Shown here piece by piece: positions 35,041-48,158 of a stretch of DNA of 64,000 nt; the first letter of the stretch is position 1, and the number at the start of each line of letters is the position of its first letter. This DNA is from Clostridia bacterium (lineage in GTDB: Bacteria > Bacillota > Clostridia > Oscillospirales > CAG-272): the NCBI GenBank assembly GCA_017465885.1, contig JAFTVG010000011.1, forward strand, positions 75,276 through 139,275, given 5' to 3'. The translations under genes were made by a program, and so were the position numbers. The notes under the pieces are model-generated. The model worked only from the letters and a program-made list of their open reading frames with translations. It was not told where the DNA came from and did not search any database.

Positions 35041-35117
35041 GGCGGAATAGCTCAGCTGGCTAGAGCAATCGGTTCATACCCGGTAGGTCGTGGGTTCAAG
35101 TCCAACTTCCGCTACCA
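35041..35117 (+). tRNA. tRNA-Met (anticodon CAU, elongator-like), CCA encoded
   Basis: Acceptor GGCGGAA/TTCCGCT (G1-U72). Anticodon arm ATCGG-TTCATAC-CCGGT resembles Firmicute elongator tRNA-Met. The T stem has one G-A mismatch. Confidence 0.8.
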
Positions 35118-35119
35118 TT

Positions 35120-35194
35120 GGCCCGTTGGTCAAGAGGTTAAGACACCGCCCTTTCACGGCAGTAACATGGGTTCGATTCCCGTACGGGTCACCA
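35120..35194 (+). tRNA. tRNA-Glu (anticodon UUC), CCA encoded
   Basis: Close to the Bacillus tRNA-Glu sequence as I recall it (GGCCCGUUGGUCAAG.GGUUAAGACACCGCCCUUUCACGGC.GUAAC). There is one C-A mismatch in the anticodon stem. Confidence 0.85.
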
Positions 35195-35199
35195 AAAAA

Positions 35200-35238
35200 G
35201 ATAACATCCGAACTTTTAAGTTCGGATGTTATCTTTTT
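35200..35238 (+). terminator. Rho-independent terminator after tRNA-Glu
   Basis: 14-bp stem GATAACATCCGAAC/GTTCGGATGTTATC followed by TTTTT. Confidence 0.85.
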
Positions 35239-35240
35239 AT

Positions 35241-35403
35241 CCAAGCCGCAGGCTTGGTATGGAATCACGCGTCAGCGTGTATGGAATCGCCTCAGGCGCA
35301 TGGCATCACCGAAGGTGCATTTTCTGCGGCTTGATTACATACGCGACTGCGTCGCAATTCCATTCCGCAACGAGTTGCGGATTCCATACACGCCTACGGC
35401 GTG
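35241..35403 (+). other. Array 1 of seven mini-hairpins interleaved with inverted 8-9-mer words, immediately 5' of a four-helix-bundle gene
   Basis: Hairpins lie at 35241-57, 35266-79, 35288-98, 35307-17, 35343-55, 35365-80 and 35390-402. The words TATGGAAT (35258, 35280) are mirrored by AATTCCATT (35356) and ATTCCATAC (35381), which could form nested long-range stems. Confidence 0.8.
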
Positions 35404-35427
35404 ATTTGGATGCGAAAGGAGAATGAT

Positions 35428-35781
35428 ATGGCAAAGAATTTATTGCTTGAATATTCCGAAAAATTGGCTTGCGAAATTGCAGCGCTTTGCAACGAGCACA
35501 AAATAGACTCCAATACAGCATATCAAATCAAAAAATCATCATCAAGTGTTTTCGCCAACATTTCCGAAGCTCAATATCCTCAAAGTCTTGCCGATATGCT
35601 ATCTAAGTTTGAGATTGCACGCAAGGAATGTATCGAAACAGAAAGCTGGCTCAAATTGATTTTTTCGTCAGAATGCATTGACGAAGAAACCTTTAAGAAA
35701 TACCGCAATCTCTGTGGAAGAATTCGCAGGATGTTAACATCTTCTTGCATTACAATTGAAAACAAATTAAAGCAAGGTTGA
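35428..35781 (+). CDS. Four-helix-bundle protein (23S rRNA intervening-sequence protein / Avd-like family)
   Basis: 117 aa. RBS aaaggag. The family pattern ...SSSSVFANISEAQ...F..KFEIARKECIETESWLKLI... is present. Terminator CAAGGTT-gaaa-AACCTTG plus a T-run lies at 35771-35797. Confidence 0.75.
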   Translation: MAKNLLLEYSEKLACEIAALCNEHKIDSNTAYQIKKSSSSVFANISEAQYPQSLADMLSKFEIARKECIETESWLKLIFSSECIDEETFKKYRNLCGRIRRMLTSSCITIENKLKQG

Positions 35782-35799
35782 AAAACCTTGCTTTTTTAG

Positions 35800-35935
35800 T
35801 GGGTTCGGGCTTCTGCCCGATTCTGTCCCAGCGTGAGCGCAGGGACGGTGCGAGGTGGGCGCCGCCATTTGGCGGTGGACATCCACGCGCATGCTTGCCC
35901 TAGACGCAAGCGTCTGGGATTTCTATTTTTAATAG
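35800..35935 (+). other. GC-rich cluster of short hairpins in an AT-rich context (possible small structured RNA or element remnant)
   Basis: TCGGGC-ttct-GCCCGA, GTCCC...GGGAC, GCCGCC-attt-GGCGGT, GTGGA-ca-TCCAC and CCCTAGACGC..GCGTCTGGG, followed by a T-rich tract. Confidence 0.35.
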
Positions 35936-36005
35936 ATTTTTCACTCTTGAATAAACATCATCGGAGGTGCTAAGTTGAATCAATAACAACTAATCCGTTT
36001 CGGTA

Positions 36006-36017
36006 TTATTCCCATTC
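36006..36017. repeat. Degenerate att-core copy (TTATTCCCATTC)
   Basis: 11 of 12 nt identical to the guaA stop-region repeat. It lies exactly 113 bp from the first arm-type heptamer, the same spacing as in the intact element. Confidence 0.55.
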
Positions 36018-36118
36018 TTTTTTGGAAATCTTCTTTGGCTTACTTATATCCTAAATAATATCCCAACCGGCGGTTTTGAGCCCGTTTTTCCACTCATTAT
36101 TTTATTTTTCAAAATTTT

Positions 36119-36137
36119 TGTTGCAGAAAATGTTGCA
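36119..36137. promoter_or_regulatory. Paired arm-type repeats of element A, left end (TGTTGCA x2)
   Basis: TGTTGCAgaaaaTGTTGCA. Confidence 0.45.
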
Positions 36138-36173
36138 AAATCGCTTGTGGGATAGTGCCGAGTGGCTTAAGAG

Positions 36174-37475
36174 TTACGGCCTCACCATTCGAACCGTGTG
36201 CTCTGTTTGTTTTGTTTTTACCAACCCAAGTTTATCGCAAATATGAAGTAGTTCCTTGTTTAATACAGGAACATCAATATAAGTTTGTTTTCCGGCTATT
36301 GATAGCACGTACTCAAGAAGACGAGTACCAAATCCATTACGCTGATACTTCCCCTCAATGTATAGATTATCTATATGTCCGTTATGTACCGTAACGATTC
36401 CGATTTCTCTTCCAAAAGATATGCTATACAGTTTTCCACCGCTTGAAATGACTTTGTTGATTTTTTCTGCAATGATTTTTTCTTCCGTGATGTATCTTGC
36501 CTCGTTTTCTTCTCTGGACAAACTGTAATCAAACCTTCCGTATCGATTTACATATCGGCAGATATGCTCAACTTGTTCAGTAGTGCCCGAAAACTCTCCA
36601 ATTATAATTTGGGTTCCCATAGCAGCCACAATCTGCGAGTCGGGATTTGACCATGGTTTGTTGATTCCCCAAAAGATTGAATTATTGGAGTTCGTATCCA
36701 AACCTGAGAGCAGGTCTTTGCGATTACATATTACTTTATAATTTCTACGCTTGAAATAAAACATATTGCTCTCACAAGTAAAGATAGAACTTATCCTTTG
36801 TCCTTGATGTATCAATGCGTCTTTCAACGACAGCAAATCTACATCATTCGGAACGGTGTCATAAATACCGTCAAATAAACGGAAACAAGCCCAATAATCC
36901 TTAACTTCCGGTACTATGCTTGATGTCCAACTTGCATAACAATTCACCAATTGCATCAACACATATTTTCCGTCAAAATTATGAAAATCTTCTTCAGAAA
37001 TCGGTTTTGATTTTTGTTCTGTATATGGTTTTCCTACTGTCTGCAACTGAACAGCAATGATATCTCCGTCATCAAAAATTCGTTCTGTGTGCACATTCGG
37101 CTTAATTTTCTTCTTTGGTAGTTGCGGTGATAGTAGTTTTTCTTTGAACTCGGCAAGTTTCTTTTTTCTGGAATCCAAAGTCTTTTGACCGGCTTCTTGC
37201 CACAACGCCAAACCAAAACCGCTATCAATCATTTCAAGTGCTTTGTTCCTTACAGAATCAGTTAAAATCCCTTTCTTCCACATAAAATCAGCGAGCGAAT
37301 AAATATAGTTGCACCATTCTTCTTCGTCTGATTCATCAAACATTTCTGACCTGATATAGTTATCAATCCGTTGCAACGCTTCTTCTACATCAAACTTATA
37401 GAAGGCGGCGGTATATTCAATATATAAATCTTTTGCAGTATCATTTCCTGTGATACTGGTATTCCAAGTTCCCAT
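36174..37475 (-). CDS. Fusion protein: DUF4259-like N-terminus plus an unknown middle region plus a C-terminal GNAT acetyltransferase fold
   Basis: Strong RBS aggaggt. The N-terminus MGTWNTSITGNDTAKD resembles the DUF4259 start (MGTWGxGxFDNDxAxD). The C-terminus IDNLYIEGKYQRNGFGTRLLEYV matches the GNAT motif A (Q/RxxGxG). Confidence 0.55.
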   Translation of the reverse strand: MGTWNTSITGNDTAKDLYIEYTAAFYKFDVEEALQRIDNYIRSEMFDESDEEEWCNYIYSLADFMWKKGILTDSVRNKALEMIDSGFGLALWQEAGQKTLDSRKKKLAEFKEKLLSPQLPKKKIKPNVHTERIFDDGDIIAVQLQTVGKPYTEQKSKPISEEDFHNFDGKYVLMQLVNCYASWTSSIVPEVKDYWACFRLFDGIYDTVPNDVDLLSLKDALIHQGQRISSIFTCESNMFYFKRRNYKVICNRKDLLSGLDTNSNNSIFWGINKPWSNPDSQIVAAMGTQIIIGEFSGTTEQVEHICRYVNRYGRFDYSLSREENEARYITEEKIIAEKINKVISSGGKLYSISFGREIGIVTVHNGHIDNLYIEGKYQRNGFGTRLLEYVLSIAGKQTYIDVPVLNKELLHICDKLGLVKTKQTEHTVRMVRP

Positions 37476-37539
37476 ACGTTACCTCCTATTTACTTAAAAG
37501 CCACTTGCAACCATTCCTCTTCACGCTTTTTATATTGAG

Positions 37540-37557
37540 TGTTGCAAAAGTGTTGCA
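37540..37557. promoter_or_regulatory. Paired arm-type repeats of element A, right end (TGTTGCA x2, 11-bp spacing)
   Basis: TGTTGCAaaagTGTTGCA. Confidence 0.45.
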
Positions 37558-37569
37558 GCGCGTTTTTCG

Positions 37570-37986
37570 TCAATTGCAGAAATGCCCGAAAGCCCTTTGT
37601 TTCCAAGGGTTTTCGGGCACTTGTACGCCGGTTAATTGTTTTGATTTTATAGTTGTAACAGTCGAAACTAACATTCTGCGAAGCTCAATACACGCACTTT
37701 GCATTTTATTAAACTCATTTTCACTAATCGAATTAGTTTCATAAAGAAGCTCAAGCCAGTATTCGCTCTCGTTACATTCTTTTAGTGCTATCTCAAACTT
37801 TGAAATAAAATCCTTTGTACCTTGCGCGTACTGCGCCTCGTGGACGTTTGCGCCAACCGACGTGCCACTTTTAAGCAACTAATTGATTAAAACGCCTTCT
37901 ATTCTGCTTTCTCTTAACCGTCTGCAAAGAAAAACTATTTCTTTGGCAAATGCTTTTGATTTATCTCTCAAGATACTGTCTGCCAT
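37570..37986 (-). pseudogene. Four-helix-bundle protein gene interrupted by an in-frame TAG and extended at its 3' end into the element-A terminus
   Basis: ATG at 37986 with RBS aaaggagaaa. It reads MADSILRDKSKAFAKEIVFLCRRLRESRIEGVLIN-TAG(37881-37879)-LLKSGTSVGANVHEAQ..., where family members usually have Gln. The C-terminus runs about 20 aa past the family end, through the 37584-37618 hairpin. Confidence 0.65.
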
Positions 37987-38002
37987 AGTTTTTCTCCTTT
38001 TT

Positions 38003-38156
38003 AGTTATGAGTTTAAAGTTATGAGAGTGCTTCGCACTCGTTATGATATGATTGCCTCGTTCTTTCAACTGCACCGAAGGTGCATCATAACTTGACGAAG
38101 CCAACCATAACTCATAACTTGCCCAAAGGGCAATCATAGTTCATTTTGCTTCGCAA
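38003..38156 (-). other. Array 2 of mini-hairpins interleaved with inverted words, immediately 5' of the second four-helix-bundle gene
   Basis: Hairpins lie at 38026-38, 38071-83, 38120-32 and 38146-56. The words AGTTATGAG (38003, 38017) and CGTTATGAT (38039) are mirrored by ATCATAACT (38084) and CTCATAACT (38111). It shares CACCGAAGGTGCAT with array 1. Confidence 0.8.
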
Positions 38157-38158
38157 AA

Positions 38159-38170
38159 TTATTCCCACTC
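38159..38170. repeat. att core, distal copy (TTATTCCCACTC)
   Basis: Identical 12-mer to 47151-47162, which is the stop codon plus the last three codons of guaA. Confidence 0.7.
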
Positions 38171-38271
38171 AAGATTGATTATTTTATCAATGGTTTTTAT
38201 GGGGCTATTTAGTCTATTTATTCTCATTTTTTGCGCCTAAAATCTCACAAAAATTTGGCTCTCAAAAATAT

Positions 38272-38289
38272 TGGTACGATTTTGGTACG
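38272..38289. promoter_or_regulatory. Paired arm-type repeats of element B, left end (TGGTACG x2, 11-bp spacing)
   Basis: TGGTACGattttGGTACGc, 113 bp from the att core. Confidence 0.55.
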
Positions 38290-38435
38290 CCATAAAAAAG
38301 CTGTTTTTCGTGTGTTTCACGGGGTAGTTTATATTTTCAACCTGCTATCCGAACAACATCAAAAAACGGCGTTTTTTTGCCCTTTTTGAGAGGGATAATT
38401 GCGAGGTTTCCATACTCTGTCCGAGTAATCATTTT

Positions 38436-39353
38436 TTATTGCTCTAACAAGTATATTTTACCCTCTGCTCTTAAAACGGAAATATCATAATAACGATATA
38501 TCGCTTCGATCATTTCTCCGTCTTTCTCTGCTTCACCAATGCCGGAACTCCATACACGCAGAAAACTATATTCTTTTGTTTCGGAGTTATACTGACCTAA
38601 AAAATCATAGGTGGTAGTTTCCTTAACGCTTTCTTCACCGTCCGCATATATCAAATCCGTATAGGCATATTGCTTTTGGCTTGTATCAACTTGAATACCG
38701 TAATTGTTATACTTACCCGACAATTCAAAGGCAACGCTTTGCTCTTTTTCTATGTCAATGAGAGAATAGTATTCTTCTTTAAGAGAGATACCCCACCAAA
38801 CAGCAAGATCATCAATTTCCCCAAAGGCATTCTCTTTCCAATAGGGGTACTCTATCACATCAAAATAATCGTTCCAATTATCAAGCGTTATAGTAATTTC
38901 TTTGGAATTGGTATGTGTTGTCTGCGTATCGTCTGTGTTTACGCCGCCATTATCAACATATTCTTTGTCTTTGGCAACAAAATCAGCGGGTCTGTAGTAT
39001 ATCTCTGTATCATACTTTAAGACGGTCTTTCCGTTTTCGTCTGCAATTTCCAAAACACCGCTTACGCCGTTTTTATCAAGCGTAAAAATGAATTGATTTA
39101 GATCGGCAATATATTCCCATTTTGCGCTTTCACCCTTATAGATACAAGTGCCGTCCTCTTGCAAAGTGATTGTTGCAACTTGATATGTTATCTCATTATC
39201 AAAACGAGATTTAAGGGAGTTTGCTTTCCATTCTCCCATATAATCCGAAATAGATTGTTTATCGTTGTTATTCTCTTTTTGATTATCATTATTACAAGCG
39301 GAAAATGAAAACAACATTACAACCGCTAATAACAGTACAAATAATTTTTTCAT
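38436..39353 (-). CDS. Lipoprotein of unknown function (305 aa), element cargo
   Basis: Lipobox FSFSAC and RBS aggagc. Confidence 0.6.
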   Translation of the reverse strand: MKKLFVLLLAVVMLFSFSACNNDNQKENNNDKQSISDYMGEWKANSLKSRFDNEITYQVATITLQEDGTCIYKGESAKWEYIADLNQFIFTLDKNGVSGVLEIADENGKTVLKYDTEIYYRPADFVAKDKEYVDNGGVNTDDTQTTHTNSKEITITLDNWNDYFDVIEYPYWKENAFGEIDDLAVWWGISLKEEYYSLIDIEKEQSVAFELSGKYNNYGIQVDTSQKQYAYTDLIYADGEESVKETTTYDFLGQYNSETKEYSFLRVWSSGIGEAEKDGEMIEAIYRYYDISVLRAEGKIYLLEQ

Positions 39354-39538
39354 TTGTGCCGCTCCTACTGACGATTTATTTTAAGTAATTATAACATAAA
39401 ATTGTGAATAAAGCAACTGACAGAAACAATTATACCTACAATCAGCAACTTTTTTCGTTTTTTCACGAAAAGCAACGAAATAAATCACCAATGTTTCTAT
39501 GGGAAACATCACTCTTGGTAAAATTATATAAAGAGGTG

Positions 39539-39841
39539 ATGTTTATGATTGTATGCTTGTCTGTGCGCTTGAAAGAATTGCGCATAAATAAAAATCTAAC
39601 ACAAGCGCAAGTTGCTCAATATGTGGGTGTTACCCGTGCCGTTATAAGTGCATACGAAACGGATATACGGCAACCGTCTTATGATATACTGATACGCCTT
39701 GCGCTGTTATACGGCGTTACAACCGACTATCTATTATGTATTGATAGTAAACGGTATTTGGATATATCGGGTCTATCGGAGCGGGAAGCCGCCGCAGTAT
39801 GCGAAATGGTTAATGTATTTATGGAAAACAAAAAGAAATGA
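39539..39841 (+). CDS. XRE-family HTH transcriptional regulator
   Basis: RBS aaagaggtg. HTH_3 pattern LTQAQVAQYVGVTRAVISAYETD. The palindrome ATGTTTC-tatgg-GAAACAT lies upstream (39490-39508). Confidence 0.7.
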   Translation: MFMIVCLSVRLKELRINKNLTQAQVAQYVGVTRAVISAYETDIRQPSYDILIRLALLYGVTTDYLLCIDSKRYLDISGLSEREAAAVCEMVNVFMENKKK

Positions 39842-39852
39842 GGTACATATCT

Positions 39853-40542
39853 ATGAAAAAAAGAATATTATCACTCTTAATGGCTGTATGCCTTATGACA
39901 ACGCTTGTCAGCGTTTGCTCCGTGTCCGCTTCTGCTGCGGAAGGTGATGTTTATGTTTATGCCTACAACGCAAGAGCAAAAGCCGGAGAAACGGTTGAAA
40001 TCCCCTTTTATATCAATTCTGAGGAAGAATTTGCTTGCTTGACCTTTACTCCCGATTTTGATTTTACCGCTTTAGAGTTGGTTAATGTTGAGTGTGGCAT
40101 ACCGGGCGGTAGCTTTATATACAACGAAAATCCCACCAACCCTAAATTTATTTGGTATCACCCTCAAAATATGGCTGTCGGACAAGAACCCGTTTTCACT
40201 TTAACCTTTGTTGTTAAAGAGGGAGCAAGAGAGGGCAAATATCCCGTTACGCTCCTTTTTAACGAAAACGATATTTGCGATGAAAACGGCTCCCGTATTC
40301 CCCTGCAAGTGGAGGCGGGGGAAATCACAATATTTCGCTATCTTCTCGCCGATGTCAATAACGATCTTTCTGTTGATAGTGCTGATGTTGTTAAGCTTGC
40401 TCGTTATTTGGTTTATTTGGAAACGGAGATCAACACATACGGAGCAGATGTAAACAAGGATAGCAATGTTGATGGCAGGGACTTAATCAAACTTGCACGC
40501 CATATGGCAGGGGCAGAAATGATCGAGGGCGCAGGATATTAA
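39853..40542 (+). CDS. Secreted cohesin-dockerin protein (small adaptor scaffoldin-like)
   Basis: Signal peptide. A cohesin-like beta-sandwich pattern (AKAGETVEIPFYINS...FTLTFVVKEGAREGKYPVTLLF...GEITI) is followed by two dockerin Ca-binding repeats (DVNNDLSVDSADVVKLARYL / DVNKDSNVDGRDLIKLARHM). Confidence 0.7.
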   Translation: MKKRILSLLMAVCLMTTLVSVCSVSASAAEGDVYVYAYNARAKAGETVEIPFYINSEEEFACLTFTPDFDFTALELVNVECGIPGGSFIYNENPTNPKFIWYHPQNMAVGQEPVFTLTFVVKEGAREGKYPVTLLFNENDICDENGSRIPLQVEAGEITIFRYLLADVNNDLSVDSADVVKLARYLVYLETEINTYGADVNKDSNVDGRDLIKLARHMAGAEMIEGAGY

Positions 40543-40627
40543 CCGACTTTTCAAGCATACAATCAAATACATAATAGCAATAGACCGTCAGCAATGGCGG
40601 TCTATTTGCTTTGTTGAATAATAATAT

Positions 40628-41317
40628 TCAAAACTGCCCTTGCTCCAAAACAAGCTCTTGCTTGTACTTATAAAAACTGTTTCGGGATATTCCGGCAAGG
40701 CGTTGACATTCGGCGTTGTTTAGAGATCCGCCAAAATCAATTAAATGTATGCGGATAATCTCTTTTGCCGCTATGCTCTTTTTGGTGGTGAGCTTTGCGC
40801 CCTTTTGTTGTCCTATCTGCTTTCCGTTCAGCCGAGCGGTTATAATGCCCTCTTTGGTGCGTTGGTGTAGGTCTGTTACCTCTTTTTCCGCTTGCTCAAA
40901 TGCTATCCTTATTTGCTCTTTGGCTAATTCCATTAGATATTTATTGATACCCTCTAAAATATAATCCACAGCCGTCCCCGTGAGCTTTACAGAGCTTGCT
41001 ACCGCCTTTTTATAGGTCTGTGTATTGATTTGCGGCTCTTTAAGGAAAACAAGCTCTACGCCCCTATTGTAAAGCTCTTGATATACCGCAAAGCCGTCAG
41101 CGGCGTTACGGGACATTCTTGACACAGAGTCAAAAACTATCATATCCCCCTCAACTACGATTTTTAGCAATTTATCAAAATTAGGGCGGGATAGTTTCGT
41201 ACCCGTAAACTCGTCTTGTAAAATGATCGCTTTAGGGTACGCCGTTTTTATATTTCGTATCTGTCTGTCAATGCTTTGTTTAGGCGTGGAAATTCGTGCA
41301 TATCCGTATATTGTCAT
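40628..41317 (-). CDS. Small serine recombinase (resolvase/invertase family)
   Basis: MTIYGYARISTPKQSIDRQ contains the catalytic Ser motif, and there is a C-terminal HTH. 229 aa. Confidence 0.85.
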   Translation of the reverse strand: MTIYGYARISTPKQSIDRQIRNIKTAYPKAIILQDEFTGTKLSRPNFDKLLKIVVEGDMIVFDSVSRMSRNAADGFAVYQELYNRGVELVFLKEPQINTQTYKKAVASSVKLTGTAVDYILEGINKYLMELAKEQIRIAFEQAEKEVTDLHQRTKEGIITARLNGKQIGQQKGAKLTTKKSIAAKEIIRIHLIDFGGSLNNAECQRLAGISRNSFYKYKQELVLEQGQF

Positions 41318-41361
41318 TGGTTATATTCCTTTCTGTGTTCAAATTTAACGACCGTCTGATT

Positions 41362-41441
41362 TGGTACGCTGTGATAAGGCAAAAACGCCTTGCGCCGTCT
41401 GCGCTTTTGGTACAATCGTGAAATAGGTCAGTTTTGGTACT
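41362..41441. promoter_or_regulatory. Three TTTGGTAC(G/A/T) repeats upstream of the serine recombinase gene (res-like or extra arm sites)
   Basis: TGGTACG at 41362, TGGTACA at 41408 and TGGTACT at 41435. This is the same heptamer family as at both element ends. Confidence 0.45.
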
Positions 41442-41485
41442 GTGTGAGAGGGGCAGGGACTAACCCTGCCGCCCCTCGTTGACTT

Positions 41486-41602
41486 TTATATAATCCGCTT
41501 GTATGCAAGAATAAAGAATATCACCCCTGCAACTATCGGCAAAACTGCGGACAATATCAAAAGTAAGAAAATCACAATGCAAGTTTCTGTATCGTTCAGC
41601 AT
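41486..41602 (-). CDS. 38-aa hydrophobic peptide, translationally coupled to the SprT-like gene (not in the ORF track)
   Basis: The ATG lies 6 nt after the SprT-like stop, and RBS agagggg lies inside the upstream gene's end. Sequence MLNDTETCIVIFLLLILSAVLPIVAGVIFFILAYKRII has one TM plus a basic tail. Confidence 0.4.
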   Translation of the reverse strand: MLNDTETCIVIFLLLILSAVLPIVAGVIFFILAYKRII

Positions 41603-41608
41603 TGCACA

Positions 41609-42259
41609 TCACCCCTCTATCATTTTCACGGCGCAATCACCGCATACAATGTTTACTGTGCGCGTTGCTCTAACTATCGTATGACAGCAAGGGCAGATAT
41701 AACGGCGGCTATTGCCTTTTGCGGTTGTGGTGATTTGAATACCACCGCTTGCGGAATGTGCGCCAACACCAACAGACATATATCCTATATCATTTCGGCA
41801 CATTTCTATTTCCCGTAGCTCGTTATGGTTTAACAGCCATTCAAGCAGGGTATCGTCCGGCTCTGTATGCGACCACCCGTATTTTTCTGTTTTGGTGCAT
41901 ATCAACCCGTGATCTCTACAAGCGGTTGCAAATGCTTTGTTGTGATATGTTCCGTTCCTTGATGTGTCTTGAATGTTCAGTATGGTATCATTGTACATAT
42001 GTACCATTTCGTGAAGCAATGAAGCGGTGATAGCTTCAAGCGGTCTGTTTAGTGTTCCGCTTGCTATATTGATTTCACGCTTTTGTGTATCTCCGGCACT
42101 CCAAGCATCCCACGGCGTATAGTGTGCGTATGATCGGCTTGACGGCGTTACAGTTATAACGGGCGTGTCAAGTGCATTGTTGAACATATCGGCGTTTAAT
42201 GCCCTAAACATTTTCTCTAATTGGTTGACAAGTCTTGACATATTGGTTACTTGTTTCAT
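41609..42259 (-). CDS. SprT-like zinc metalloprotease domain protein with a C-terminal zinc ribbon
   Basis: HEMVH (HExxH) in the context SLLHEMVHMYN. The C-terminus has CPCCH...CGDC. Confidence 0.7.
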   Translation of the reverse strand: MKQVTNMSRLVNQLEKMFRALNADMFNNALDTPVITVTPSSRSYAHYTPWDAWSAGDTQKREINIASGTLNRPLEAITASLLHEMVHMYNDTILNIQDTSRNGTYHNKAFATACRDHGLICTKTEKYGWSHTEPDDTLLEWLLNHNELREIEMCRNDIGYMSVGVGAHSASGGIQITTTAKGNSRRYICPCCHTIVRATRTVNIVCGDCAVKMIEG

Positions 42260-42401
42260 AGTTATTTACTCCCTTTCAATTATATTGATATTGATTTTAA
42301 GGGAGCGGGCGTGTATAATATTATTGTCCCGCTCCCCTGCGGTTGTGGGTCAAGTGTCTTGTATGATTGCTTTGGTCGGCGGTTTATACAAGGCACTTTC
42401 T

Positions 42402-42677
42402 TTATGCAATACTAAAGCGGCGGCTTGCCGTCTGTTTGGTGTACTGCTTGTACATATCGGCGTGTTCTTTCTTAAATGATGTAGTATCAAATCTGTTACT
42501 TAACACAGAAGTCCAACGGCAAATAAAACGCCCTGCTTCTAATTCTTCCGTGTCCCTTGCAAGCATTTCGGCTTTGATTTCGTCCCTTAATGCTTCGGCT
42601 TCTGCTCTGGCTTCTTCTGCAAGTGTTTCCCACTCTTGCAACTTTGCGATCTTGCTTTCCATTTCGTGTGTTGACAT
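42402..42677 (-). CDS. Small coiled-coil hypothetical protein (91 aa)
   Basis: RBS aagggga. Charged helical N-terminus. Function unknown. Confidence 0.5.
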   Translation of the reverse strand: MSTHEMESKIAKLQEWETLAEEARAEAEALRDEIKAEMLARDTEELEAGRFICRWTSVLSNRFDTTSFKKEHADMYKQYTKQTASRRFSIA

Positions 42678-42744
42678 TGTTATTGTCCCCTTTGTTAATA
42701 TATTCGGCGTGGGCGTTTGCCCTTGCCGTGATTATAGTATAGCA

Positions 42745-42822
42745 CATTGCGCAATGGTCGTCAATAGGCACATTGCACAATGTTCTTTTTGACGATTTGT
42801 TTATTTTGTACATTGCACAATG
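42745..42822. promoter_or_regulatory. Three CATTGCnCAATG operator palindromes overlapping divergent promoters
   Basis: CATTGCGCAATG at 42745, CATTGCACAATG at 42771 and at 42811. The plus promoter is TTGCAC (42813), 17-nt spacer, TGcTATAAT (42833-42841). The minus promoter is TTGACG, 17-nt spacer, TATACT, with operator 1 in its spacer. Confidence 0.6.
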
Positions 42823-42867
42823 TTCCAAAGTGTGCTATAATGATGTATATAATTAGGGGGTGCTATT

Positions 42868-43107
42868 ATGGCTTATAAAGACAGATCAACCGCAATCAAA
42901 TACAATAACGAATACAACAAGCAAGCGTATGACCGTATTAACTTGACCGTCCCCAAAGGAAAAAAGGAAAGCATACAGACGGCGGCGCAGGCGAACGGCG
43001 AAAGCGTGAACGCATTTATTAACAGATTGATTGATACCGAGCTTGAACGCATAGAGCAAGGCGAGGGTATTTCCCATATTTCACGCCGGACGGACGATAA
43101 AAAATAA
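42868..43107 (+). CDS. Ribbon-helix-helix (CopG/Arc-like) DNA-binding protein
   Basis: 79 aa. RINLTVPKGKKESIQTAAQANGESVNAFINRLI fits a beta-strand plus two helices RHH pattern. Candidate repressor for the adjacent operators. Confidence 0.55.
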   Translation: MAYKDRSTAIKYNNEYNKQAYDRINLTVPKGKKESIQTAAQANGESVNAFINRLIDTELERIEQGEGISHISRRTDDKK

Positions 43108-43255
43108 GCAAGTTGTTTGATCTTTCTCACACCGGCATTTTTGAAAATTAACATTCAAAACGAAACGGCATAAAAAAAGAGCGGCTTGCGCCGCTCCTAA
43201 AAACACATATCTATATAGCAAAACGGACGATTGATTTCGTCCGTTATTTTTTTGC

Positions 43256-43543
43256 TTATATTAGATATTCCTCTGTATCTGTACCAACCGTTTCAAGCAT
43301 AATCTTACCTCCGAGCCGAAAGGCGTGAGCAAATATTTCACACTCTATAACGCCGTTCATTTCATTTAGGCAATCCTCGTATTTTTCAAGTATTTCCTTT
43401 TGCTTGTCGGTCATTGTGGCGGTGAGTTCATCACGATTACGCCCCATAAGATCAAGCAAGTGTTTAATCCGCTTGTTGCCGTCCGTGCATTGTTCTTGTG
43501 GGTGTACATTGCCGTACCATAATTCTTCAAGTATTCCTCTCAT
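43256..43543 (-). CDS. Small conserved hypothetical protein (95 aa), of a kind common on clostridial mobile elements
   Basis: RBS aaaaggg. The start ILEELWYGNVHPQEQ recalls a recurrent MGE-borne family. Function unknown. Confidence 0.5.
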   Translation of the reverse strand: MRGILEELWYGNVHPQEQCTDGNKRIKHLLDLMGRNRDELTATMTDKQKEILEKYEDCLNEMNGVIECEIFAHAFRLGGKIMLETVGTDTEEYLI

Positions 43544-43585
43544 AATATGCGCCCTTTTCTGTTTTTCTTTACTCCATTATACCAC

Positions 43586-43763
43586 GCCGAAAATGCGTTG
43601 CACACTTCAATTTTTGATTTAGGCGCACTATGAAAATACGGAGATTGGCGTAATTTCAAGGGTGCTGTAAGCAACGCTTAATAGTGTATATAGAAAGTAC
43701 GCATTTTTCGGCACTTCGATTTAGACACATACCGAAAGGGCGTATTTTTCGCACTTTTATAGG
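43586..43763. repeat. Iteron-like direct and inverted repeats upstream of the putative replication/DNA-binding genes
   Basis: ACGCATTTTTCGGCACTTCGATTTAGACACA (43699-43729) has a partial direct copy GCGTATTTTTCGCACTT (43740-43756), an inverted partial copy GCCGAAAATGCGT (43586-43598), and the related CACTTCAATTTTTGATTTAGGCGCA (43603-43627). Confidence 0.4.
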
Positions 43764-43828
43764 GGTATGTCAATTTTTTCTTATGGTGTATAAGAAAACG
43801 CTATCACGAAAGAAAGGAGAACAAGAGT

Positions 43829-44023
43829 ATGGATTTACTTATGACCTACACAAACAGTATTCATATCACCGAAACGGACAAGGGCATTGAAATAGTGATT
43901 GACAAGCCGTCCGAGATTTACGATTGGCTACAAGAGATCAAAGCGTATTATGAAACCGATCTGTTTTCTGTTCTATATGACTTAATCAGAACGGAACGAG
44001 AGAACGAGCGGGACGAGCTTTGA
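43829..44023 (+). CDS. Small hypothetical protein (64 aa)
   Basis: RBS gaaaggaga. Acidic C-terminus. Confidence 0.45.
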   Translation: MDLLMTYTNSIHITETDKGIEIVIDKPSEIYDWLQEIKAYYETDLFSVLYDLIRTERENERDEL

Positions 44024-44131
44024 TTTATCCATTTATGAAAGGAGCGTGATAAACGCAAAAACGCCCATAACGGCAGGGACAAACGCCGTTGAATTAAAGG
44101 GAAACAATCAAATAGAAAAGGCAAATAAGCA

Positions 44132-44728
44132 ATGGGTAATATTTATATATACCACACATCACCAAACCAAAGAAGCGTTATAACGCATAAAACGCTGTCC
44201 GATAAAGAACACCCATACGGGATATGTAATATAGCGGCTACGCTAACCGCCGCAAAAGAGCTAACCGACAGAGCATATAAACTGTATATCCGAATGTCAT
44301 TACACCAAGACGGGCATACCTACGCTTTAAGTCCCGTTGAGATTAACAATAGTATTGGTATGACAGATAAGCGTTACAGAGAAGCGGTAAAAGAATTGAT
44401 TGATAAAGGTTATTTGGTGCAACACAAAGACCATAAAAGCGTGTATATCTTTTACGAAGCTCCGGCTATTGACAATGTTTCAGTATTGCCAAAAGAGATA
44501 GGCTATCTACCCCAAACGGAAAGTACAACCGTCCATAATGACTATATAGAACAGCCGATATGGGAAGTCAAACCGTCTGTTTCGGGGGGAGAAATAATAG
44601 ATAATATTACATCTCAAATACATAATAATACTGATACTACATTGCCGGATTTAAGTTTTATAACCAACAAAGGAAAAAGCAATAATGACTTGTTTCCAAG
44701 TCTGCAAAATGAAGATTTACCATTTTAA
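44132..44728 (+). CDS. Putative winged-helix DNA-binding / replication-initiator-like protein
   Basis: The segment SPVEINNSIGMTDKRYREAVKELIDKGYL looks like a wHTH. It lies downstream of the iteron-like repeats. The assignment is weak. Confidence 0.35.
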   Translation: MGNIYIYHTSPNQRSVITHKTLSDKEHPYGICNIAATLTAAKELTDRAYKLYIRMSLHQDGHTYALSPVEINNSIGMTDKRYREAVKELIDKGYLVQHKDHKSVYIFYEAPAIDNVSVLPKEIGYLPQTESTTVHNDYIEQPIWEVKPSVSGGEIIDNITSQIHNNTDTTLPDLSFITNKGKSNNDLFPSLQNEDLPF

Positions 44729-44840
44729 CACCGTTGCGGAACTATGAGATAATTCCGCTGTTTTTGGTAAATGAATTGTGGGGTGAGCGTTTTAGCTTGC
44801 CCCATTTTGATATTTACAGAATAGAAAGGAACACCACTTT

Positions 44841-45599
44841 ATGAGCATAACAGAATTAGTCCGCAATTACGCTATAAGCGTTAATGATAACGATATGTAC
44901 ATTACGGTATTGCGAAGCGGCAAAACATACTACACCAACTATGACAAAGGTTTTTATGAACTGATGAAAAGCGGCATTTTCACGGGAGCGGGAACAAACG
45001 GCAATAGCAAAGGTGATTATTTGAAATTCACTTGTACCCATACCGATTTTGACCCGTATTTTCATCACATTGTTTTTTGCTATTACTATCGAGGATTGCG
45101 CAAGGACAACTACATTGATGTTTTACGCCAATTCAGCAACGAATTATCAAAAAGCAAATTGAATGTAGATCATCTGCAAGACGGGATTTACAACAACAGA
45201 AAATGGAATTTATCTCTTATGCCTAAAGCTGATAATATGCAAAAAAGGCACTTTGACAAGCGTTTTAAGAATATCTTTGACATAGTGTCTGCTTATGACG
45301 GAGAGGGATATAGAGTACAGCTTACATACCTAAACAAAGGCATACGAGCGGTAAGGTATTATTGTGATACGCCTAATGACTTGAACGCATTATATCGTTA
45401 CCTAAAGGCGCATAAATGGGAACTGCGCAAGGCAAAAGCGGGTGTGCAGCTATCCGATAGTTTTTATTCTTCCTCTGGTGATTTTGAAAATTATTATTCA
45501 AACACATTTCCGCAACTTGTACCCAATGAGGAAATACACGGTATGCAACGGCATTTAGTGAAAATGCGGAAAAATGCGTTTTCTCAATACAGAGGATAA
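44841..45599 (+). CDS. HNH-like nuclease domain protein
   Basis: LNVDHLQDGIYNNRKWNLSLMPKADNMQK fits the H-N-(H/N) pattern of HNH_3/AP2-associated endonucleases. Confidence 0.5.
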   Translation: MSITELVRNYAISVNDNDMYITVLRSGKTYYTNYDKGFYELMKSGIFTGAGTNGNSKGDYLKFTCTHTDFDPYFHHIVFCYYYRGLRKDNYIDVLRQFSNELSKSKLNVDHLQDGIYNNRKWNLSLMPKADNMQKRHFDKRFKNIFDIVSAYDGEGYRVQLTYLNKGIRAVRYYCDTPNDLNALYRYLKAHKWELRKAKAGVQLSDSFYSSSGDFENYYSNTFPQLVPNEEIHGMQRHLVKMRKNAFSQYRG

Positions 45600-45701
45600 A
45601 ATAACTGTTTTATAAACAAAATACATCGTCATTTTGGCTTTTACAGCCGTTTACGGCTCAAATCCTTGTTGTTAGCAGGAGAATGACCCAAAGGAGCAAA
45701 A

Positions 45702-45890
45702 ATGACTAATAGACCCAATAACGAAGAATTATTTTACACCGTTGACGATATTATAAACATACTCAATGTTTCAAGATCAACGGCATATAGAGAAATCAAA
45801 AAATTAAACGAAGAGCTGAAAAAGCAAGGTTATATCACCATTTGCGGTAAAGTGCCTATAAAGTTTTTTCGGGAGCGGTGGTACTGTTGA
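45702..45890 (+). CDS. Excisionase-like HTH protein (Xis/MerR-type small DNA-binding protein)
   Basis: 62 aa. LFYTVDDIINILNVSRSTAYREIKKL. Lies immediately upstream of the integrase. Confidence 0.65.
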   Translation: MTNRPNNEELFYTVDDIINILNVSRSTAYREIKKLNEELKKQGYITICGKVPIKFFRERWYC

Positions 45891-45965
45891 CAAAGATTTT
45901 GAAGTGTGCAAACGCCACGCGAAATGGTAAAATTATTATATATGGATTAAAGGAATTGAAACACT

Positions 45966-47051
45966 ATGGCAGTACAAAAATACACCGCTAAAAACGGAAA
46001 ACAACTATGGTATTTTTCAGTTAGATACACCGATTGGACGGGTGAGCGGAAACGGAAAAAGCAAGAGGGATTTAAGACCCAAAGAGAAGCAAAAGAAGCA
46101 GAATCCGACTTTTTGAATAGCAAAAGGACGGATATTGACATTACTTTTGAAAATCTTGTAAAGGCGTATGTAGAGAACAGAAACGCCCGAATAGAGCAAA
46201 CTACTTTAGCAACCAAAGGGCATATGATACGGACAAAGATATTGCCCTACTTTGCTAAAATGCCTTTAAGCAAGATTGATACCGCTACCGTTATGAATTG
46301 GCAAACGGAGCTTATGAACTACCGCAACCCAAAGACAAATAAGCCGTATTCGCAAACATACCTACGGCAGATACACAATCAGTTATCAACGATCTTTAAC
46401 TTTGCAATTCGATATTACGGATTATCAAGAAATCCCGCCCAACTGTGCGGCAGTATGGGTAAACAGAACGCTGAAAAATTTGATTTTTGGACTTATGACG
46501 AATTTCAAAAGTTTATCCAAGCCGCAAAGGACGATATAAACGCTTATACAATATACAATCTGTTCTTTTATAGCGGTATGCGTATGGGTGAATTACTTGC
46601 CCTTACGCTGAATGATTTTGACTTTGATAAATGTACCGTATCAATCAACAAAAGTCTTGCCGTCATTGACGGTGAGCAGACAACAAAGAAAACCAAAACG
46701 GAAAAGAGTAAACGCATTGTTGCGTTGCCCGTTCCGATAATGGAAATGATAAAAGAATATGCAGGGCATTTGTACGAATACAACCCTGCAAACAGATTAT
46801 TTATATCAAGCAAAACATCACTACATAGAGATATGCGCAAGTATTGCGAGATCTCCGGCGTGCGCAAAATTAAAGTACACGAACTGCGCCACAGCCACGC
46901 AAGCCATTTAATTGAGTTAGGCGTTTCTCCGCTTTCGATAAGTGAGCGGTTAGGACACGAAGATATAAAAACAACGCTTAACACATATTCGCATTTGTAC
47001 CCAAACAAGCAAAGTGAGATAGCGGAAATCCTTACGGAATATGTGCTATGA
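45966..47051 (+). CDS. Tyrosine site-specific integrase with an N-terminal arm-binding (AP2-like) domain
   Basis: The N-terminus KNGKQLWYFSVRYTDWTGERKRKKQEGFKTQREAKEAE is typical of Tn916/phage Int arm-binding domains. The C-terminus has R...HELRHSHASHL...GHEDIKTTLNTYSH, containing the catalytic R-H-R-H/Y residues. Confidence 0.9.
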   Translation: MAVQKYTAKNGKQLWYFSVRYTDWTGERKRKKQEGFKTQREAKEAESDFLNSKRTDIDITFENLVKAYVENRNARIEQTTLATKGHMIRTKILPYFAKMPLSKIDTATVMNWQTELMNYRNPKTNKPYSQTYLRQIHNQLSTIFNFAIRYYGLSRNPAQLCGSMGKQNAEKFDFWTYDEFQKFIQAAKDDINAYTIYNLFFYSGMRMGELLALTLNDFDFDKCTVSINKSLAVIDGEQTTKKTKTEKSKRIVALPVPIMEMIKEYAGHLYEYNPANRLFISSKTSLHRDMRKYCEISGVRKIKVHELRHSHASHLIELGVSPLSISERLGHEDIKTTLNTYSHLYPNKQSEIAEILTEYVL

Positions 47052-47072
47052 TAGCGGGGTGATAGCGAATAA

Positions 47073-47090
47073 TGGTACGAATGTGGTACG
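47073..47090. promoter_or_regulatory. Paired arm-type repeats of element B, right end (TGGTACG x2, 11-bp spacing)
   Basis: TGGTACGaatgTGGTACG, about 60 bp from the att core. Confidence 0.55.
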
Positions 47091-47150
47091 CTGACAAAAC
47101 AAAAACGCCCGAAAACCCTGTATTTTCAAGGCTTTCGGGCATTATTTATT

Positions 47151-47162
47151 TTATTCCCACTC
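47151..47162. repeat. att core, guaA-proximal copy (TTATTCCCACTC)
   Basis: The reverse complement encodes E-W-E-stop of guaA. Identical to 38159-38170. Confidence 0.7.
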
Positions 47163-48158
47163 GATGGTTCCGGTGGGCTTGGGCGTGAGGTCATAGAGGA
47201 CGCGGTTGATACCCTCTACTTCGGAGGTGATGCGCGCGGTGATCTTGTGGAGGATCTCGTAGGGGATCTCCTCAATGCTGGCAGTCATCGCGTCCTTGGT
47301 ATTGACGGCACGGATGATGGCAGGCCAACCCTCATAGCGGCCGTCGTCCTTTACGCCCACCGACTTGATGTCGGGAATGATCACGAAATACTGCCACACC
47401 TTGCCTGCAAGTCCGCAATGATCAAACTCCTCACGCAGGATGGCGTCTGCCTCACGCAGCGCGTGAAGTCTGTCTCTGGTGATGGCTCCAAGGCAACGCA
47501 CGCCCAGACCCGGTCCGGGGAAGGGCTGACGGTATACCATCGCGTGGGGCAGTCCGAGTGCCTCGCCGACCACTCTGACCTCGTCCTTGTAAAGGAGCTT
47601 GATGGGCTCTACCAAGTCAAACTGCAGATCCTCGGGAAGTCCGCCCACGTTGTGGTGAGACTTGACTGCCTTCTTACCCTCTGCCTGCTTGATGCTTTCC
47701 AAAATGTCAGGATAGATGGTGCCCTGCGCCAAGAAGGAGATACCCTCCTGCTTGCGCGCCTCGTCCGCGAAGACCTCGATGAATTCCTTACCGATGATCT
47801 TTCTCTTGGACTCGGGATCGGATACGCCCGCAAGAAGATCAAGGAAGCGGTCGGTTGCGTCAACGTACACAAGGTTTGCATCCAGCTCCTTGCCGAAGAT
47901 CTCGATAACGTTCTCAGACTCGTTCTTGCGCATCAGACCGTGGTTTACGTGCACGCAGACCAACTGCTTGCCGATCGCCTTGATGAGCAGCGCGGCAACC
48001 ACAGAGCTGTCTACCCCGCCCGACAGCGCCAAAAGCACCTTTTTGTCGCCTACCTGCGCTCTGACCTTTGCCACCTCTTCTTCGATGAAGGCGTTTGCCT
48101 GCTCAAACGTGGTGATACGCTCAAAGCTTTCGGGACGAACGTTCTTTTCCATTTCCAT
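47151..48158 (-). CDS. guaA: GMP synthase ATP-pyrophosphatase plus dimerisation domains only (no glutamine amidotransferase domain)
   Basis: RBS ggagga plus ATG at 48158. PP-loop LALSGGVDSSV near residue 45. The C-terminus KPTGTIEWE is the canonical GuaA end. 335 aa, compared with about 510-525 aa for fused bacterial GuaA as I recall it. Confidence 0.85.
   Translation of the reverse strand: MEMEKNVRPESFERITTFEQANAFIEEEVAKVRAQVGDKKVLLALSGGVDSSVVAALLIKAIGKQLVCVHVNHGLMRKNESENVIEIFGKELDANLVYVDATDRFLDLLAGVSDPESKRKIIGKEFIEVFADEARKQEGISFLAQGTIYPDILESIKQAEGKKAVKSHHNVGGLPEDLQFDLVEPIKLLYKDEVRVVGEALGLPHAMVYRQPFPGPGLGVRCLGAITRDRLHALREADAILREEFDHCGLAGKVWQYFVIIPDIKSVGVKDDGRYEGWPAIIRAVNTKDAMTASIEEIPYEILHKITARITSEVEGINRVLYDLTPKPTGTIEWE

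Follow-up and report, generated by a model that had tools for sequence, protein, structure and literature searches.

How did the AT-rich interval between a tRNA-Glu gene and the 3' end of a guaA-type gene arise in the genome of an uncultured gut Clostridia bacterium? The interval lies in a stretch of 64,000 nucleotides of contig JAFTVG010000011.1 (assembly GCA_017465885.1), hereafter the window, to which all coordinates refer; related contigs and loci carry labels of the type L007. An earlier note, made from the sequence alone, had read the whole interval as an island built by tandem accretion at the guaA 3' end, with the layout 4HB cassette 1, element A, 4HB cassette 2, element B, in which the 4HB cassettes each carry a PF05635 gene and elements A and B are flanked by copies of an attachment (att) site. 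Our analyses place the probability at roughly 0.85 that positions 35999-47162 represent a tandem array of units stacked at one att site of a guaA paralog. The stack of A, 4HB cassette 2 and B is thus borne out, while 4HB cassette 1 belongs to the tRNA-Glu side, and the left 0.8 kb of the proposed island (this cassette and a spacer) does not represent accretion at the guaA site.

The array is delimited by three copies of a short repeat. The 12-mer TTATTCCCACTC is found at 38159-38170 and at 47151-47162, and a copy with one mismatch, TTATTCCCATTC, is found at 36006-36017; all three form a direct array in one orientation, and the copy at 47151 is the reverse complement of the E-W-E-stop end of a minus-strand guaA-type gene, as the earlier note had stated. 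No further matches were found elsewhere in the 64-kb window, for which 0.32 matches would be expected by chance, and none of 100 shuffled sequences reached three matches, so that the 12-mer is not frequent by chance in the window. The copy at 36006 lies within the distal att of element A (att', 35999-36017; 19-bp repeat TTCGGTATTATTCCCATTC), the copy at 38159 is the attL core of element B, and the copy at 47151, which comprises the final three codons and the stop codon of the guaA paralog, is the attR core of B. The AT-richness noticed earlier between 35.24 and 47.15 kb was also confirmed, as G+C content ranges from 0.33 to 0.44 between about 35.25 and 47.1 kb and from 0.50 to 0.58 in both flanks; by segment, it is 0.378 for element A, 0.380 for 4HB cassette 2 and 0.396 for element B, as compared to 0.53 for the flanks.

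We compared the window to metagenome contigs of the same species, which were obtained by exact-protein look-ups and are 98-100% identical to the window. In L007, L008 and L009, which come from three samples and share DNA that is 97.7-99.0% identical to the window, the guaA stop codon is followed (in window orientation) by the 13 nt TAGCCATTCGGTA and then by window position 37624 downwards; the segment 37625-47150 is therefore wholly absent from these partly filled sites. In L008, the 19-bp TTCGGTATTATTCCCATTC is present at the guaA junction and again at the position of window 35999-36017, and thus brackets element A. L013, L018 and L019 stop exactly at position 38170, and L014 runs past that base into different sequence; its 42 nt past the core had no match among the sequences of this analysis. 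The combinations observed were A without B (L008), A with 4HB cassette 2 and a different element (L014), and A with 4HB cassette 2 and B (the window). The exact contig boundaries, together with presence and absence of the units, indicate that the three repeat copies are real junctions and that the units vary independently. Boundaries in related genomes thus fall exactly at the repeats, and both the segment missing from L007-L009 and the different element at 38170 in L014 are consistent with the successive integrations that had been proposed.

Element B (38171-47150, plus strand, 8980 bp) lies nearest to guaA and carries, next to the guaA-proximal repeat as noted earlier, genes for a tyrosine integrase (45966-47051, plus strand) and a 62-aa Xis-like protein (45702-45890, plus strand). 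The integrase shows matches to PF00589 (E 5e-26), PF14659 and PF14657, representing the catalytic, SAM-like and arm-binding domains, and its stop codon is separated from the core copy at 47151 by 99 bp. The Xis-like protein resembles the excisionase of ICEBs1, with a match to the NCBIfam ICEBs1 Xis model (E 1.8e-14) that is below the curated cut-off. The question, raised in the earlier note, of whether relatives of the integrase target guaA was addressed by an integrase-first search using one genome per species. Wherever the integrase was at least 68% identical and the DNA beyond it could be read (12 loci), the element borders on the 3' end of a guaA gene that carries the 12-mer, in the order integrase stop codon, GGTACG-N5-GGTACG, terminator hairpin, TTATTCCCACTC and guaA body. 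The GuaA proteins of these hosts are 51-88% identical to that of the window, and the host records (metagenome-assembled genomes) bear the titles Acutalibacteraceae, Lachnospiraceae, Bulleidia and Ruminococcus. No guaA adjoins the integrases that are more distant (42-50% identical; Christensenella, Anaerotignum).

Among 50,697 phage records, the best matches of the B integrase were to phi3626, phiMMP02 and phiCD505; the phi3626 match, the second-best row, shows 45.1% identity over 96% of the query (E 2e-80). The GenBank record for phi3626 (NC_003524) annotates a 12-bp attP that is identical to TTATTCCCACTC and located about 75 bp past the integrase stop codon, and a passage in PMC3442830, citing Zimmer 2002, describes phi3626 as integrating into guaA. 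The likeness extends to paired hexamers on both sides of the core. GGTACG-N5-GGTACG occurs at only two places in the window (0.07 expected), i.e., in the P arm (38273-38289) and the P' arm (47074-47090) of B, at -77 and +114 relative to the core, and phi3626 carries AGTACG-N5-AGTAC[G/T] pairs at -76 and +115; the corresponding GTTGCA pairs of element A are located at -97 and +114. These pairs are putative binding sites of the arm type, which would fit the presence of an arm-binding domain in the integrase. As the core encodes E-W-E-stop, the reading frame and stop codon of guaA are restored at the integration site.

The compact gene set and the size of B recur in at least five host species (L102, L104, L105, L107 and L108), all with intact int and xis genes and conserved arm repeats; the stretch corresponding to 43668-45612 is replaced in L102. 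In L104, the element is 95% identical to B at the DNA level over 8.1 kb and the host GuaA is only 80% identical, which argues for recent horizontal transfer. Strain polymorphism and near-identical copies in different hosts suggest catalyzed integration and excision of B, and B appears, by these comparisons, to be an intact and recently transferred element that may still be competent to excise. One could instead regard B as an inert prophage remnant and the island as a fossil, given the phage-type integrase (with phi3626, phiMMP02 and phiCD505 as best matches), the small proteins matching PHROGs families, the absence of recognized transfer or virion genes and an integrase call of 317 aa in L006. 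We consider this very unlikely, as the same gene set with intact int and xis and with arm repeats is maintained across those host species, the element in L104 is far more similar than its host's GuaA, B is polymorphic within the species, and IMG/VR contains no relatives of the B integrase.

Element A (36018-37624, minus strand), an integrase-less mini-element of 1.6 kb, has att copies at both ends, a single cargo gene and no recombinase or transfer genes. Its P arm repeat (GTTGCA-N6-GTTGCA, 36120-36137) is followed by the cargo gene (36174-37475, minus strand), which encodes a 433-aa protein with a C-terminal GNAT domain (Pfam), by the P' arm repeat (GTTGCA-N5-GTTGCA, 37541-37557) and by a terminator hairpin (37584-37618). 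In another species (L026), arms 91% identical to those of A over 130 bp and 85% identical over 163 bp enclose an unrelated gene of 500 aa, in a unit bounded by AGTGGGAATAATA. A core copy terminates the P arms of L026 and L119 at the position homologous to 36006, and in L119, where no guaA is close by, element A is enclosed by two core copies. A core-bounded island of 4.5 kb in L121 begins with the P' arm and the gene for the 433-aa protein and also includes a fragment of an integrase. For the 433-aa protein, at least 599 homologues were counted, many of them on very short contigs. These comparisons point to A as a non-autonomous, att-flanked mini-element of the cis-mobilizable element (CIME) type, belonging to a family with an exchangeable cargo gene and presumably mobilized in trans by a cognate integrase.

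As every same-species contig that reaches the site leftwards of A carries A, and no fully empty site was found, the insertion of A is supported by its repeats and its relatives. Alternatively, the copy at 36006 might be a chance match, the 433-aa gene an ordinary chromosomal neighbor and B the only inserted element. This would account for the mismatch, for a repeat of only 12 bases and for the lack of an empty site for A, and the homologue of the 433-aa gene beside guaA in L121, a distant species, at the same 161-bp spacing, could represent conserved gene order. However, the repeat extends to 19 bp in L008, the arms of L026 (91% and 85% identical) surround unrelated cargo and carry a core copy at the homologous position, two core copies flank A in L119 with no guaA in the vicinity, the arrangement of the hexamer pairs matches that in B and phi3626 even in the position at +114, and the G+C content of A is 0.378 as compared to 0.53 in the flanks. 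Taken together, these data make a chance match extremely improbable.

4HB cassette 2 (37625-38158, minus strand) is located between A and B and consists of a leader (37987-38158) and a PF05635 gene with its start codon at 37986. In the window, this gene has an in-frame TAG at 37879-37881, where its relatives have CAG (Gln), and, as compared to L133, it has lost its own stop codon, so that the frame runs to 37570, through the terminator of A; the gene is intact in L014. The cassette is absent from L007, L008 and L009. In L031, L035, L037, L039, L051, L125/L126 and L133, the first base of a homologous cassette directly follows either the guaA stop codon or a core copy, and a comparison of L030 with L031 reveals, in a second sequence context, precise presence or absence of a cassette before a shared native terminator. 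In L133, GuaA is 71% identical and the 4HB protein 88% identical to those of the window, and the junction between the cassette and an A-type P' arm is the same as in the window; the cassette can thus lie inside A-type elements and travel with them. The 3' end of 4HB cassette 2 has no core copy and no associated recombinase, and its junction with A reads TTAACCGGCGT instead of TACCGAATGGCTA. By these comparisons, the cassette seems to be gained or lost apart from A and B and not to be an element of the integrase type.

The leader of 4HB cassette 2 appears to be structured. Across seven sequences, 97% of cells pair and compensatory changes occur in 8 of 12 pairs; the observed values were reached in none of 500 shuffles, with a structure derived from those seven sequences themselves. 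The guaA stop codon forms part of the stem of the first leader hairpin, where compensatory changes are also seen. Other interpretations of the cassette were rejected or dropped: a multi-copy repeat, as its location at a hypervariable junction accounts better for the many short contigs; the left end of B, given the core at 38159 and contig L014; and a miniature inverted-repeat transposable element, as the search for terminal inverted repeats gave only a weak TTTTG similarity.

The placement of this cassette also allows for a different order of events, in which 4HB cassette 2 was the original, co-transcribed neighbor of guaA, A entered at a downstream pseudo-site, the order of arrival was 4HB cassette 2, A and B, and the cassette-less strains lost the cassette. 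The cassette directly follows guaA in L031, L035, L037, L039, L051, L125 and L133, guaA and the cassette align continuously between L031 and L051 (75% identity), as would be expected under vertical co-inheritance, and the guaA stop codon within the first leader hairpin, with its compensatory changes, implies co-transcription. On the other hand, the 3' end of the cassette has no more than AATAA in common with the att core, a match too short to serve as the overlap region of a tyrosine recombinase, and the A-type P' arm meets the TAA of the cassette at the same offset at which it meets the guaA TAA in the cassette-less L008, L026, L119 and L121. The shared junction in L133, with GuaA at 71% and the 4HB protein at 88%, suggests that the cassette travels inside the element, and the difference between L030 and L031 is a precise insertion or deletion before a shared native terminator. 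We thus regard a cassette-first order as unlikely, if clearly less so than the other alternatives considered here.

The preferred explanation, tandem accretion at the guaA paralog, can be summarized as a series of steps. The attachment site would be the final three codons and the stop codon of the paralog, and each arriving element would bring its own 12-base copy and its own terminator, which would leave guaA intact and regenerate the site for the next arrival. Older elements would be shifted away from guaA. B, with its phi3626-type integrase and ICEBs1-like excisionase, would then be nearest to the gene, and A, a putative non-autonomous relative with the same att layout, GTTGCA repeats and no recombinase, would be furthest from it; 4HB cassette 2, between the two, would have entered at the guaA stop codon by a route that is not integrase-like. 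The most likely order of arrival is A, then 4HB cassette 2, then B, with a different element having taken the place of B in one sister strain. In this sense, the island consists of phi3626-type guaA integrative elements in tandem accretion, which is a known process, and it offers a clean instance of that process with sharp boundaries.

Several observations count against this explanation. A fully empty site, with guaA joined to 35998 leftwards, was not found in the same species. The junction TTAACCGGCGT is not a clean att product, so that the chemistry of an integrase does not account for one step of the stack. In the approximately 150 loci fetched, GTTGCA pairs occur only in A-type arms, and no integrase was found that has them as arm repeats. 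B carries no relaxase, conjugation, replication-initiator or virion genes that match at significant scores in Pfam, PHROGs or NCBIfam. An exact search of IMG/VR for the predicted attP junction GGGCATTATTTATT-TTATTCCCACTC-AAGATTGATTATTTT gave no match and thus no direct evidence of excision; the restored attB predicted after excision of B is GCTTCGCAAAA-TTATTCCCACTC-GATGGTTCC. Metagenome contigs could also be chimeric, yet the junctions recur in independent samples and assemblies. The irregular junction between 4HB cassette 2 and A, together with the exchange of modules in B (L102, 43668-45612), might further suggest that a fragile intergenic spot was altered by homologous recombination or by illegitimate gain and loss of DNA, in place of site-specific integration. 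We give this next to no credence, since every boundary of A and B coincides with the same sequence of 12-19 bp, contig ends agree with it to the base, the integrase family keeps its site specificity in hosts without homology in their flanks, and the core is identical to an annotated phage attP.

The target itself, whose 3' end is as given in the earlier note, is not a full-length guaA. The gene at 47151-48158 (minus strand) encodes a 335-aa paralog of GMP synthase (Pfam GMP_synt_C and NAD_synthase; NCBIfam guaA_Cterm, 444 bits, above the cut-off) with the ATP-pyrophosphatase and C-terminal (dimerization) domains and without the glutamine amidotransferase domain. It is likewise called at 335 aa in the sister contigs and is 54% identical to the C-terminal part of the full-length GuaA from L099; no full-length guaA is present within the window. 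We also observed that this ATP-pyrophosphatase-only paralog of 335 aa is kept across many gut Clostridia, and that in L089, L099 and L100 a full-length guaA ends about 1 kb upstream, directly before the paralog.

A guaA-first metagenome scan yielded 80 loci with GuaA 75-89% identical to that of the window. In related guaA loci, divergence begins right after the stop codon, and 72 junctions fall into 46 sequence classes. An integrase homologue was located within 3.5 kb of guaA in 19 of the 45 relatives with at least 1.5 kb of downstream sequence. Elements lie between two core copies, with the native flank resuming beyond, in L068 and L080, and two or three elements are arranged in tandem in L062 and in the contig sampled as L114/L107. 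These comparisons support the guaA 3' site as a hotspot in related species, in agreement with the earlier note. In a separate observation, L125 carries, at 2519-2701 and between an acyltransferase-carrying insert and a 4HB cassette, a second copy of the last 61 codons of guaA (88% protein identity), which indicates that some elements at the guaA site carry a long copy of the target end and not just 12 bp.

The genes of B (15 open reading frames; Pfam, PHROGs, NCBIfam) begin, after the P arm, with a lipoprotein gene (38436-39353, minus strand), followed by genes for an XRE HTH protein (39545-39841), a cohesin-dockerin protein (39853-40542, plus strand), a serine recombinase (40628-41317, minus strand), a SprT-like protein (41609-42259, minus strand), a 91-aa protein (42402-42677, minus strand), an RHH protein (42868-43107) and a DUF6809 protein (43256-43543, minus strand). 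A gene for a 64-aa protein lies between the DUF6809 gene and that of a weakly DnaD-like 198-aa protein (44132-44728), which is followed by the gene for a 252-aa protein (44841-45599), by xis and int, and, beyond the P' arm, by a terminator (47107-47140). The 198-aa protein gave only a weak DnaD-like/HTH_36 match (Pfam, PHROGs), and the 252-aa protein only a faint HNH_3 match (E 0.2) in a relaxed Pfam scan; AlphaFold modeling from single sequences reached a mean pLDDT of only 35 for the 252-aa protein and 38 for the 198-aa protein. Several small B proteins match PHROGs families; no virion, packaging or lysis genes were found among the 15 open reading frames, and no packaging genes for redirecting a helper were recognized in B. 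From its gene content, B would be a small integrative element that may be mobilizable or satellite-like.

Some further features of B were noted. A 21-bp near-palindrome, TTTTGAAAATTATTATTCAAA, occurs three times within the element (40613-40633, 43139-43159 and 45482-45502; 0.02 expected), with the first copy abutting the stop codon of the serine recombinase gene; the copies may mark module limits and serve as operators or as sites of recombination. Another palindromic motif, the 16-nt ACATTGCACAATGTTC, occurs three times at 42744-42825, in the divergent intergenic region of the 91-aa and RHH genes, which is probably the operator of a regulatory switch of B. The cohesin-dockerin protein is predicted to be secreted and has relatives 70-99% identical in L104, L105 and L107; a mobile element thus moves a part of cellulosome-type scaffolding between species. 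In L006 (11248-12201), the B integrase is called at 317 aa and not 361 aa, with DNA 99.6% identical, which may reflect a frameshift or an alternative start.

To the left of the array, tRNA-Met (35041-35117, plus strand) and tRNA-Glu (35120-35194, plus strand; ARAGORN, Rfam) form an anchor outside the guaA stack, followed by a tRNA terminator (35195-35238) that consists of a perfect 21-bp-stem hairpin (an inverted repeat with 100% complementarity) and a T run. A homologous hairpin is found at the same place in L141 and L147, and no second copy of the tRNA-Glu 3' end is present in the window. 4HB cassette 1 (35239-35800, plus strand) comprises a leader (35239-35427), a PF05635 gene (35428-35781) and a terminator. 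In other species (L141/L142 and L147), homologues of this cassette directly follow tRNA-Met, tRNA-Glu and the terminator, which places the cassette on the tRNA side and not in the guaA stack. The spacer between cassette 1 and the leftmost att copy (35801-35998) is hairpin-rich, with a G+C content of 0.52, and has no homologue in the rest of the window or in related loci; it is presumed to be the original sequence downstream of the guaA attB. As none of the 80 related loci has tRNA-Glu downstream of guaA, gene order on that side is not conserved.

Two observations on related loci concern the surroundings of 4HB1-type genes. In L141 (3420-3560), five units of the 12-mer TGATGATATACA, each followed by a different short hairpin, lie downstream of a 4HB1-type gene, and L141 and L142 diverge right after this array. 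In L147 (approximately 2470-2790), an 18-nt copy of the tRNA-Glu 3' end repeats about 290 bp downstream of the tRNA, and the copies bracket a G+C-rich, hairpin-rich insert just before a 4HB1-type cassette; in that species, insertions may thus also occur at the 3' end of tRNA-Glu.

The products of the two 4HB genes, which lie where the earlier note had placed them, match PF05635 (67.3 and 69.5 bits; cut-off 33.8), with further matches to TIGR02436 (71.3; cut-off 24) and, for cassette 1, to PDB 2rld (E 6e-13). Both leaders are arrays of GC hairpins with variable stems, UUCG- or GNRA-like loops and constant linkers of 7-9 nt, i.e., TATGGAATC and GATTCCATA in cassette 1 and GTTATGA and TCATAAC in cassette 2. 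An Rfam scan of 34.5-48.5 kb with E values up to 1 detected only the two tRNAs and noise, and no family for the 4HB leaders. The rRNA intervening-sequence proteins and the Avd proteins of diversity-generating retroelements share PF05635 and TIGR02436 and are likewise embedded in strongly structured nucleic acid. However, the 4HB genes described here lie outside rRNA genes, neither a reverse transcriptase nor a template repeat is found near them, and, unlike in those systems, each 4HB subtype keeps to the end of a single host gene (the guaA stop codon or the tRNA-Glu terminator). It is tempting, if still doubtful, to view the 4HB cassettes as recombinase-less, site-specific cassettes, made up of a small gene and a hairpin-array leader, that are gained or lost precisely. 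Under the same tentative interpretation, the 4HB2 type would land at the guaA stop codon and the 4HB1 type at the tRNA-Glu terminator, and such cassettes would ride inside integrative elements. If true, this would bear on how the related rRNA intervening sequences spread, and the behavior of the cassettes is the one item of possible wider importance.

Our data thus extend the phi3626-type integrase and its 12-bp guaA core to a compact non-phage element that has recently moved between bacterial families, and they suggest non-autonomous mini-derivatives of this system with conserved arms and exchangeable single cargo genes. For annotation, a defined att site can be assumed at the guaA 3' end of Clostridia, with arm repeats predictable at about -77 and +114, and stacked elements explain assembly breaks at this position. 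The cargo of B and A (the cohesin-dockerin protein, the lipoprotein and the GNAT-fusion protein) is of local ecological interest only.

The closest known system, phi3626, is a 33.5-kb siphovirus with virion and lysis genes, as compared to the 9 kb of B, in which none were found. Both target a guaA 3' end with an identical core 12-mer, and their hexamers are AGTACG and GGTACG, respectively; unlike phi3626, B resides in an uncultured gut Clostridia bacterium, where its target is the ATP-pyrophosphatase-only paralog. In Staphylococcus, phage-inducible chromosomal islands of the SaPIbov1/SaPIbov2 type are small, integrase-bearing elements without virion genes at the 3' end of guaA (gmps), and a satellite lifestyle of the SaPI type would explain both the phage-type integrase of B and its lack of transfer genes. 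Compared by description, however, B differs from these islands in that no primase/replicase, terminase small subunit or capsid-remodeling genes were recognized.

Excision and integration have been shown for GIsul2 of Proteobacteria, which has the core GAGTGGGA at the guaA 3' end (PMC9376610). GIsul2 and its related genomic islands resemble the window in using the same conserved E-W-E codons, with GAGTGGGA contained in the 12-mer on the other strand, and in having several att sites in an array; compared by description, GIsul2 differs from B in phylum and integrase lineage and in its 15 kb with resistance and transfer-related genes. The guaA gene is likewise a target of streptococcal integrative and mobilizable elements (IMEs), which commonly stand in tandem with other elements, be these related, unrelated or decayed (PMC5357655). 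By description, the guaA-specific streptococcal IMEs (Tyr_3 integrases) are like B in their size of about 10 kb and in the tyrosine integrase that they carry at the guaA 3' end. The defining feature of an IME is a relaxase or oriT; neither was recognized in B, for which no relaxase family was matched in Pfam, PHROGs or NCBIfam. Finally, accretion that involves CIMEs, as in the ICESt1 family, proceeds by recombination at attL or attR, and element A, being att-flanked and free of recombination and transfer genes, fits the definition of a CIME. Unlike CIMEs that are one-off deletion derivatives, however, the A-type elements show conserved arms and an exchangeable single cargo gene in several species.

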